The notes: generated from the sequence alone by a model not told the origin. A DNA stretch of 64,000 nucleotides from a virus (IMGVR_UViG_2875713109_000001); one strand, 5' to 3'; shown: positions 2,648 to 5,711, numbered from the stretch's first letter. Numbers and translations are program-made.

Positions 2648-2662
2648 TTGTCATTTGTGACA
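2638..2662 (-). promoter_or_regulatory. candidate Lpa-dependent late promoter
   Basis: Minus-strand read TGTCACAAATGACA-aactcg-TAGAAT; same core/spacing as other late-operon upstream regions in this window. Confidence 0.4.
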
Positions 2663-2686
2663 GTATGCTCGCAATCGTAGTGATTA

Positions 2687-3226
2687 CTACCACCAACTGC
2701 TAGCTTTCTTCTCTCTAGCTTTTCCTTCGCTTTGCAGTAAATCTTTACTTCCTGTAGAAATATTTCTATTTGCATCAGCCTCAGACTGAATTACATCTGT
2801 CTTAGCTGCTCTCTCCTTCAACTCCTGCTCTATAAAATCGTTTTCTCGCTGGACACGAGCCGCTTTTGCTTGCAGTTCGAGTTTCATGCTTTCGAGTTGC
2901 AGCTTGCGAAGCTCATCCTCATAAGCTTGATCTCGCTTCTTGTCATTTGCTAGCTCGGCTTCTCGTTTCGCTCTACGTTCATTTTCTGCAGCAACACGCT
3001 GTTTTTCGCGTGCAGCAGCGGCAGATGCTGCTTTTTCTCTTCTAATACGTTCAGCTTGTGCTTGTTGGCGAATAAGTTCTTTTCTGGCATCCTCAGCTTG
3101 CTGCTCTTTAGCTCGCCCTTCATTTTCCGCTTGAGCAATAGCAGCAATTTGACTTTGCAACGAGTTAGCCAAGGCAGTGCCTACACTAAACGTAGAAAAG
3201 ATTAGAAATAAAATAATTTTATTCAT
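2687..3226 (-). CDS. secreted coiled-coil protein
   Basis: Signal-peptide-like N-terminus MNKIILFLIFSTFSVGTALA followed by Ala/Glu/Arg/Lys-rich heptad-like sequence; visibly AT-rich DNA. Confidence 0.5.
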   Translation of the reverse strand: MNKIILFLIFSTFSVGTALANSLQSQIAAIAQAENEGRAKEQQAEDARKELIRQQAQAERIRREKAASAAAAREKQRVAAENERRAKREAELANDKKRDQAYEDELRKLQLESMKLELQAKAARVQRENDFIEQELKERAAKTDVIQSEADANRNISTGSKDLLQSEGKAREKKASSWW

Positions 3227-3229
3227 AAA

Positions 3230-3751
3230 TTATTTCTTTTCTGGACAAGTAGCATTTGGCTGAATTCGAGTTTCATTATCTTTAGTTGAAATAAGCACAG
3301 CAAGCCCCGTTGTAAACTGGCATGCTTTACCAACTTGAGTTGAAGTGAACACCTTAGTTCCTTCTTTATAAGTCAGTGAAACACCTTCAACAATTGTTTT
3401 ATCACTAACCAAAGAACCAGCCGCTGCACCAAGAGCCGCACCACCAGTACCGCCAGCTACAGCACCCAGTGTCGATGTGCCTTTAACATTATAACCGGCA
3501 ACGCCCCCAGCAACAGCTCCCAGTACCGCACCAAATGTCTGTGCCGCTTCTTTATTAGCTTTATTATCAACTTTCACTTTAGCTGGAAGCACAGAGATAA
3601 TATTGACTGTCTTTGTTTCCTGCTTCGAATTCAATTGAGCGGTATCATAAACATCGGCAGCATAATCAGCACCGCTAGATTGACACCCAGAAAGAAGAAT
3701 TGCAGATACAACAAGAGCGCATAAAGTATACTTTTTAGACATAAGAATCAT
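3230..3751 (-). CDS. lipoprotein with glycine-zipper segment
   Basis: Lipobox LLSGC after hydrophobic N-terminus; Gly/Ala-rich stretch GAVLGAVAGGVAGY...GAVAGGTGGAALGAAAG; alternative start at 3742. Confidence 0.55.
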   Translation of the reverse strand: MILMSKKYTLCALVVSAILLSGCQSSGADYAADVYDTAQLNSKQETKTVNIISVLPAKVKVDNKANKEAAQTFGAVLGAVAGGVAGYNVKGTSTLGAVAGGTGGAALGAAAGSLVSDKTIVEGVSLTYKEGTKVFTSTQVGKACQFTTGLAVLISTKDNETRIQPNATCPEKK

Positions 3752-4032
3752 CCCAGAAAAACAAAAACCGGCGAGAAGTTACCACGAGAACGGAAAGTAA
3801 ACAAGAATACTCCCATTGACTTATATCAAATAATCAACTTTTTATAAGCTATCCCTAACTTATTGTGTATAGCTGAAAAGTCAGAGATAAGTTCACCATC
3901 TGCATTATTTCTTAAGTTAATAGTTTATTGCTAACTTAATTTATGTATCGACTATTGATATCCATCTTAAAGTAACAATATCCCTCTGCATTATTTTTCA
4001 TCACAAATAATACATCTATTGCACTACGCTCA

Positions 4033-4049
4033 CCTGCTCTAATAAATTT
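4033..4049 (+). promoter_or_regulatory. C1 repressor operator-like site upstream of immI
   Basis: cctgctctaataaattt, 15/17 match to P1 C1 operator consensus ATTGCTCTAATAAATTT. Confidence 0.55.
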
Positions 4050-4199
4050 GTATTTTTAAGTCGCGAATGCTATCTTTTCGCATCATATTGACCTTTTAAT
4101 CGTTCAGGCTTATAGTTTCGCCGTCGTAGCAAATTCTGCGACCAGGTTTGACAGCCTGAATGATTGTGCGGACAACCGCAGATTTCCGATATTGCGGTA

Positions 4200-4295
4200 T
4201 TTTTGTGTCCGTTAAACCGCGTTACGCCCAAATTATGGTGGGGCGTGATGGGGAGGCTTCGGCCTGCTGGTTTCACAATCGCCAGTCTGTCAACC
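4200..4295 (+). ncRNA. c4: candidate c4-type antisense RNA (boundaries approximate)
   Basis: Between operator and icd; contains cacaatc complementary to gattgtg repeated at 4162-4168 and at 4346-4352 overlapping the icd Shine-Dalgarno; GC hairpin ggcttcggcc. Confidence 0.35.
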
Positions 4296-4363
4296 CTGTC
4301 ACGTCCTGCCACCTGTTTGACAGCGGGTAGCAGGTTGTTAAACCTGATTGTGAGGCCGTAACT

Positions 4364-5694: not shown

Positions 5695-5711
5695 TTTGCT
5701 CTAATAAATTT
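5695..5711 (+). promoter_or_regulatory. C1 operator-like site upstream of kilA
   Basis: tttgctctaataaattt, 16/17 match to C1 operator consensus. Confidence 0.6.

Follow-up and report, generated by a model that had tools for sequence, protein, structure and literature searches.

Phage P1 carries the simC-simB-simA genes between a late tail operon and immI, and sim is the one locus in this position for which an exclusion phenotype is known. A published account treats the sim region as a variable, low-GC part of P1-like elements but does not identify its alternative occupant (PMC9603915). Here, we analyzed a 64,000-nucleotide stretch of viral DNA (IMGVR_UViG_2875713109_000001, the whole of which is called the window), a P7-type P1-like phage-plasmid that is 98–99.4% identical to JL22, phi456, RCS47, P7, and SJ46. 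In this window, two other genes occupy the same interval on the same strand (Table 1). Judged by sequence, their products are members of the YfgH (SlyB-like) and YfgI (DUF5384) families, not homologues of TraT or Sim, and the genes are phage-borne, diverged paralogues of the core Escherichia coli operon yfgH-yfgI. We propose, with a probability of about 0.6, that the pair is a mobile envelope module that would bring about lysogenic conversion of the host outer membrane.

Several studies bear on the relatives of the pair. In E. coli, yfgH shows a genetic interaction with lptD, and its loss leads to vancomycin-induced bulging and to lower levels of outer-membrane proteins (PMC3219608). Deletion of yfgH also increases SDS/EDTA sensitivity and outer-membrane permeability, its overexpression rescues the depletion of outer-membrane biogenesis genes, and YfgH has been modelled as SlyB-like rings (bioRxiv 10.64898/2025.12.22.696046). 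Mutants in yfgI are sensitive to nalidixic acid (PMC3536626), and the orthologous yfgHI of S. Typhi behaved as an SdiA/acyl-homoserine lactone-induced operon in a reporter assay (PMC11619404). SlyB itself is PhoPQ-regulated and assembles into rings that encircle outer-membrane proteins and lipid nanodomains (PDB 7ojf and 7ojg). TraT, the surface-exclusion protein of the F plasmid, is a decameric alpha-helical barrel that is proposed to exclude by altering outer-membrane properties and that protects against some phages (PMC11733297, PMC12658005). The literature that we searched held nothing on DUF5384, on upf50.x (the P7 names of the two genes), or on a phage role for YfgH-like proteins.

Gene order in the window is the same as in the E. 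coli operon, which adjoins guaA, and the products are of nearly equal length (173 and 179 aa in the phage, 172 and 179 aa in E. coli). The lipoprotein aligned to K-12 YfgH without gaps, with 115 of 171 residues identical (67%, E = 6e-73), while the DUF5384 protein was 47% identical to K-12 YfgI. At the nucleotide level identity is ~69%, and the chromosomal yfgI-yfgH locus was detected at this level in 5420 of 5426 complete E. coli genomes. A lipobox, a putative glycine zipper, a conserved cysteine pair, and an AT-rich upstream region of ~300 bp are common to both loci. By contrast, the phage pair resides on a phage-plasmid in the sim slot, its upstream DNA is unrelated to that of the chromosomal operon, the hairpin loop and the signal peptides differ, and the spacer between the two open reading frames (ORFs) is 3 nt instead of 15 nt. 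Moreover, the GC content at third codon positions (GC3) is 0.24 in the lipoprotein gene and 0.31 in the DUF5384 gene, compared with 0.43 and 0.49 in E. coli, and synonymous divergence between the phage and core copies has reached saturation. Given this difference in GC3 and the saturation of synonymous sites, the phage copy is not a recent capture from E. coli. A preliminary description of this DNA, made from the sequence alone, had missed the paralogy to the host operon. The P7 GenBank deposition already annotates both genes, with their likeness to E. coli proteins, as upf50.5 ("outer membrane lipoprotein of unknown function") and upf50.0 ("membrane protein of unknown function").

The preliminary description had proposed a glycine-zipper lipoprotein, and closer analysis bears out a lipobox lipoprotein, encoded on the minus strand, with a probable glycine-zipper hairpin. 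The N-terminus has a Lys-rich n-region and a hydrophobic core followed by the lipobox LSGC (residues 20–23), whose Cys23 is invariant across 36 aligned homologues. The residue at position +2 is Gln rather than Asp, from which sorting to the outer membrane is predicted; the lipobox and sorting calls are both rule-based only. Overlapping small-xxx-small motifs form two stretches (residues 70–86 and 93–116) that coincide with a predicted helix-turn-helix, and a low-confidence AlphaFold2 model places this candidate glycine-zipper hairpin at residues ~64–113. Cys144 and Cys169, a conserved pair, fall within the C-terminal beta domain. We also noted a Shine-Dalgarno sequence, GGGA, 8 nt ahead of the second ATG (3742), a spacing that is wrong for the first ATG. 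An allele of 84% identity, found in the same slot of another P1-like plasmid, is annotated from the ATG equivalent to the second. On these two grounds, the lipoprotein product is probably 170 aa long.

Searches with the lipoprotein returned 482 homologues at E ≤ 1e-5. A profile built from 33 of its homologues matched SlyB (PDB 7ojf_A, E = 5e-9) over nearly the full length, at an identity of only ~25%. Foldseek, run with the AlphaFold2 model, likewise ranked SlyB first (E = 2.6e-6; template-modeling (TM) scores of 0.48/0.57); the model is weak, and we used this match only because the sequence profile agrees with it. The Pfam glycine-zipper family PF05433 scored 18.2 bits, below its cutoff of 24.2, and the hairpin aligns to that of SlyB. 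Both proteins run from a lipid anchor through a beta strand and a helical hairpin to a beta domain. Unlike the phage lipoprotein, SlyB has no DUF5384 partner gene beside it; rings are known for SlyB, whereas a ring of the phage lipoprotein is suggested by homology. A search of NCBIfam gave noise only.

The names under which these proteins are deposited point elsewhere. The lipoprotein matches PHROG 1277 (E = 2e-94), which is labelled "DNA methyltransferase", and RefSeq copies this name onto the lipoproteins of P7, RCS47, SJ46, and TL-2011b (the RefSeq records concerned are NC_050152, NC_042128, NC_031129, and NC_019445). The phi456 record labels the pair "minor tail protein" and "tail tip protein". 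The methyltransferase and tail-protein labels are propagated misannotations of an outer-membrane lipoprotein.

The second protein matched Pfam PF17358 (DUF5384) with 147.8 bits (cutoff, 25 bits; E = 3e-43) over profile positions 4–145 of 145. It begins with a type-I signal peptide, with predicted cleavage between MNKIILFLIFSTFSVGTALA and NS (that is, ALA/NS), and the mature form of 158 aa would measure ~23.7 nm if wholly helical. AlphaFold2 returned one continuous helix (residues 2–178) with a mean predicted local distance difference test score (pLDDT) of 87. In the N-terminal half of the mature protein, 41% of residues are charged, 27% are Ala, and 11% are large hydrophobic residues, while conservation in the alignment lies in the C-terminal half and in the terminal SWW/SWF motif. 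PDB sequence searches with this protein, alone and as a profile, found no match. The "secreted" of the "secreted coiled-coil protein" proposed earlier agrees with the signal peptide; "coiled-coil" is an approximation for the predicted single long helix, as large hydrophobic residues are few in its N-terminal half and the heptad signal is weak. The envelope targeting that had been proposed for both products agrees with these features and with the homology to YfgH/SlyB and DUF5384/YfgI.

Next, we compared the interval with P1 and P7. Homology between the window and P1 stops after position 2658, just past the late promoter LPsit, and restarts at ~4035, where the C1 operator Oc4 lies; P7 and the window are collinear throughout the intervening cassette. 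This cassette of 1376 bp stands in exactly for the ~1.5-kb simABC cassette of P1, with the same breakpoints (LPsit to Oc4) and strand and without homology. Both occupants encode exported envelope proteins on low-GC DNA (PMC9603915), three in the case of sim and two here. BLASTP of the pair against SimC gave only short chance segments (E = 0.044 and 5.0), which indicates no similarity, and a comparison limited to Pfam found no family common to SimA or SimB and the pair. The comparison with P1 sim that the preliminary description had suggested is thus apt for the slot, its breakpoints, and its strand, but does not extend to similarity with SimC.

We then took a census of P1-like plasmids in PLSDB, defined by this type of pmgC (n = 509). 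Sim DNA was present in 298 (~59%), and the lipoprotein at ≥80% identity in ~188 (~37%); by identity, 163 of the latter fell at ≥99%, 5 at 95–99%, and 20 at 80–90%. The sim slot is essentially dimorphic, and from the sums of these counts we infer that sim and the cassette are mutually exclusive. A DNA search for the phage copy at ≥99% identity in the 5426 complete E. coli genomes gave 165 records, mostly plasmids, so that the exact cassette is present in ~3% of the genomes. The 84% allele occupies the same P1 slot together with an extra DUF559 gene, suggesting that the slot can gather further cargo. In plasmid pLR-25_1 (locus L004, 3889–5148), a 1.26-kb DUF559-domain gene lies between the DUF5384 gene and pmgC.

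A scan with the DUF5384 profile, using one genome per species, yielded 80 loci from Enterobacterales, Pasteurellaceae, Vibrionaceae, Aeromonadales, Pseudomonas, Nitrosomonas, and other taxa. At 78 of these 80 loci, the DUF5384 gene is immediately preceded on its own strand by a YfgH-like gene, suggesting that the lipoprotein and the DUF5384 protein work together. The pair was also adjacent in every mobile context examined. Alleles of ~73% identity (BLASTP) mark the ends of P2-tail-type prophages, next to genes for tail fibres and tail-fibre assembly; these prophages are found at two chromosomal sites, beside ruvC/aspS and beside the tor genes. Other mobile alleles reside on a Salmonella prophage fragment, a ~102-kb Salmonella plasmid, a 115-kb Enterobacter element, an E. 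coli island flanked by insertion sequences, and a conjugative-type Vibrio parahaemolyticus plasmid, and a partly truncated copy lies next to a phosphoethanolamine transferase gene on the 7.5-kb ColE1-type plasmid pYLMB10c. Because the cassette replaces simABC and the pair recurs in other temperate phages, the argument from position is stronger than in the preliminary description.

Some of these contexts merit separate mention. E. coli prophages L007–L009 and L015, which encode GpU, tail X, GpD, a tail fibre, and a DUF4376 protein, carry a different ~73% allele at each site. On the small, mobilizable pYLMB10c (L005, 1947–4892), the lipoprotein is 75% identical and the DUF5384 gene is truncated (127 aa). 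A Tad2-like gene (anti-Thoeris family) lies ~4.3 kb upstream of the diverged pair on the 115-kb contig of Enterobacter hormaechei (L013, 1237–1716), where the run of small same-strand genes suggests an accessory region of a phage or phage-plasmid. We rejected 60 of the 80 best IMG/VR loci as instances of phage carriage since the yfgH in them belongs to the host and lies where a prophage contig ends, and likewise the TL-2011b "phage" copy, where the host flank yfgG-yfgH-yfgI lies inside a "complete genome" record. Many predicted prophage contigs (L017, L036–L097) end in host yfgH-yfgI, with 98–100% identity to K-12 YfgH, which points to a prophage integration site beside yfgI/guaA and to over-extended boundaries.

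That the pair is neutral, hitch-hiking DNA without a selected function in the phage would fit its location in a known low-GC variable region of P1-like elements (PMC9603915) and the absence of any phenotype on record for it. The patterns of conservation make this highly improbable: dN/dS (the ratio of nonsynonymous to synonymous substitution rates) between mobile alleles is 0.04–0.11, indicating purifying selection on both genes, all 18 of the 18 P7-type copies sampled from IMG/VR are intact, and several mobile elements acquired the pair independently. GC3 is 0.20–0.34 in all mobile alleles, compared with 0.43–0.49 in the core E. coli copy. The phage copy thus belongs to a low-GC mobile pool, is old, is maintained by selection, and is not decaying DNA.

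The swap with sim also raises the possibility of a dedicated superinfection-exclusion system, a functional analogue of Sim in which a lipoprotein ring and a helical rod would block adsorption, tail penetration, or DNA passage by incoming phages, P1-like or other. The cassette is an alternative allele in the exact sim slot, and in two other prophage types the pair lies at the prophage end, beside tail-fibre genes, where exclusion or receptor-modifying morons are typically located. TraT, which excludes conjugation, and the phage lipoproteins Llp and Cor, which block FhuA, offer analogies. Variation between alleles appears concentrated in the hairpin loop (residues ~87–104), as judged by eye and unquantified.

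TraT supplies a precedent of a chromosomal-type lipoprotein gene taken up by mobile elements, in this case co-opted by plasmids, whose product is proposed to alter the outer membrane (PMC11733297, PMC12658005). Like the phage lipoprotein, TraT is a helix-anchored outer-membrane lipoprotein; it differs in being ~50 residues longer and in having a large extracellular ring domain. Weak TraT-like signals were seen in Pfam (PF05818, E = 7e-5) and in Foldseek, where TraT decamers took ranks 2, 4, and 5. We rejected membership of the TraT family, as the Pfam score of 23.1 bits is below the gathering score of 31, and a TraT fold, as the Foldseek matches had E = 0.1–0.26 and TM scores of 0.17–0.25. A profile search of PDB sequences with the lipoprotein family did not find TraT, and PADLOC-DB had no family at E ≤ 0.1 for either protein. 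With TraT below threshold, no SimC homology, no PADLOC match, no exclusion data in the literature searched, and housekeeping envelope factors as the closest characterized relatives, we consider a dedicated exclusion system, the main rival to our reading, a doubtful, though plausible, candidate. The preliminary description had offered superinfection exclusion and lysogenic conversion side by side; lysogenic conversion is supported as the general class, with exclusion as an option within it, and the two readings are not mutually exclusive.

Because the upstream genes are divergent, we infer that the pair needs its own promoter within the AT-rich leader. A relaxed scan of the minus strand gave the candidates TACACA-17-TATAAA (3869–3841) and an extended −10, TGaTATAAG (3828–3820), the latter kept in the 84% allele. 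Searching the window for the C1 operator consensus with up to three mismatches returned 15 matches against 0.37 expected by chance, and none of them was inside the cassette (2659–4034). Oc4 itself is ≥165 bp away from the candidate promoters. The default expectation is that the pair would be expressed independently of the C1 repressor, that is, in the lysogen. Elsewhere in the window, operator matches, which outline the C1 regulon, lie for example at 5695, 20865, 24387/24398, 38247/38296, and 53934/54017. A C1-operator-like 15-mer in the DUF5384 gene (2824–2838) failed the three-mismatch search and was discarded as a chance match. The leader also holds two copies of the repeat CC(A/C)TCTGCATTATTT, each with an AATAAT −10-like hexamer on the coding strand; these are possibly regulator binding sites or chance matches. 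Alignment of the upstream regions of the alleles and K-12 revealed no common regulatory motif except a short element shared with the 84% P1-like allele.

The orientation of the pair, directly upstream of LPsit and pmgC on the same strand, would also suit a role in the lytic cycle, in which the proteins, transcribed with or just before the late tail operon, stabilize the outer membrane until lysis or keep progeny off debris. Between the pair and pmgC, we found a stable hairpin only and no canonical terminator. This inverted repeat has 18-nt arms (2607–2624 and 2636–2653), is conserved in P1, folds as minus-strand RNA with −30.3 kcal/mol (z = −5.8), and takes in the LPsit −10 and part of the pmgC Shine-Dalgarno sequence. 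The hairpin could insulate the late operon from cassette read-through: a read-through RNA would mask the pmgC ribosome-binding site, and a late transcript starting downstream of the LPsit −10 would be without the 5′ hairpin arm. A late-promoter motif search modelled on LPsit matched only LPsit itself and was therefore uninformative. Against a lytic role, the P7 annotation has no late promoter upstream of the pair, the pair also resides on chromosomes, on the conjugative-type Vibrio plasmid, and on the ColE1-type plasmid, and P1 can grow lytically without the sim genes that fill this slot (PMC10695390). We regard such a role as improbable.

Our preferred reading, lysogenic conversion of the outer membrane, would run as follows. 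C1-independent transcription would start at a promoter of the pair's own within the AT-rich leader. The lipoprotein would be exported, receive its lipid at Cys23, and reach the outer membrane, where it would insert its glycine-zipper hairpin in the manner of YfgH and SlyB and, by homology, probably form rings around patches of lipid or outer-membrane proteins. The DUF5384 protein would be secreted and form a long helical rod in the periplasm; as the near-universal gene adjacency suggests, it would cooperate with the lipoprotein. The prophage would in this way alter the host outer membrane both mechanically and as a barrier; the lysogen would gain tolerance to envelope stress, and incoming phages may also be hindered.

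Several points weigh against lysogenic conversion as proposed. Nearly all E. coli genomes (5420/5426) already hold yfgHI, and the benefit of a second copy is unexplained. The other occupant of the slot, sim, is an exclusion function, and exclusion may hence be the selected trait. Expression and phenotype of the phage copy are deduced from its relatives and its sequence. Ring formation by the phage lipoprotein is argued from homology, and the YfgH ring is itself only modelled; the AlphaFold2 model of the lipoprotein, built with 33 sequences, is of low confidence (pLDDT 54). Lastly, a scan for the strict sigma-70 consensus found no minus-strand promoter for the pair, and those from the relaxed scan are weak candidates only.

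The surroundings and composition of the locus agree largely with the preliminary description, which had placed an AT-rich pair between a late operon and immI, followed by about 300 bp of very AT-rich non-coding DNA. One flank is formed by LPsit and the tail operon pmgC/tub/pmgB/sit (P7 annotation), and the other by Oc4, C4 RNA, icd, ant1/2, kilA, and repL. The non-coding DNA (3752–4069) extends over 318 bp with 31.8% GC, below the 1st percentile. For the coding DNA the claim needs qualification: it is AT-rich mainly at third codon positions, with the GC3 values given above against 0.47 in neighboring pmgC, and only mildly so overall (42.6% GC compared with 46.7% in the window, the 15th percentile of equal-sized windows). 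The coordinates of all features are collected in Table 1.

Table 1. Coordinates of the gene pair, the cassette that carries it, and adjoining elements in the window.
Feature	Position	Strand	Details and evidence
DUF5384 gene (P7 upf50.0), YfgI-like	2687–3226	−	179-aa ORF
Lipoprotein gene (P7 upf50.5), YfgH-like	3230–3751	−	173-aa ORF
Predicted lipidation site, Cys23	3683–3685 (codon)		Lipobox rule
Replacement cassette relative to P1	2659–4034		1376 bp; alignments with P1 and P7
AT-rich leader/promoter region of the pair	3752–4032	−	No ORF ≥30 aa on either strand
CC(A/C)TCTGCATTATTT repeat, two copies	3896–3910 and 3982–3996		86 bp apart in the leader; 93% identity
Left border: LPsit (−10 TAGAAT, 2643–2638) and inverted repeat	2607–2657	−	P7 annotation, repeat search, RNA fold
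C1 operator Oc4	4033–4049	+	Right cassette border; belongs to the immI backbone; operator match and P7 annotation
a1/b1 target element of C4 RNA	4110–4162		Rfam, 55 bits
isrK-like match	4123–4204		Rfam, 43 bits, under the gathering score of 50
C4 antisense RNA	4231–4316		Rfam, 68 bits

Collectively, our analysis assigns the pair precisely to the YfgH/SlyB-like and YfgI/DUF5384 families, shows that its cassette is exchanged exactly for sim and how often, and adds that YfgH-like and DUF5384 genes are paired almost universally and that different temperate elements carry them repeatedly, under purifying selection. E. coli and Salmonella commonly harbor P1-like phage-plasmids, which spread resistance genes. 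That ~37% of the P1-like plasmids in PLSDB hold the cassette in place of sim suggests that prophages can be selected for remodelling the envelope through SlyB/YfgH-type lipoproteins. The pair also bears on the role of YfgI/DUF5384 and on whether glycine-zipper ring lipoproteins affect phage entry, serum resistance, or antibiotic tolerance. More speculatively, and we think it unlikely, a YfgH-like ring with its ~24-nm periplasmic partner might represent an unrecognized class of phage entry exclusion or envelope armouring, derived from a host operon, repeatedly recruited by unrelated temperate elements (P1-like phage-plasmids, P2-tail-type prophages, and other ~100-kb plasmids), and interchangeable with Sim. 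If this were true, chromosomal YfgHI and SlyB-type rings might likewise influence phage susceptibility.

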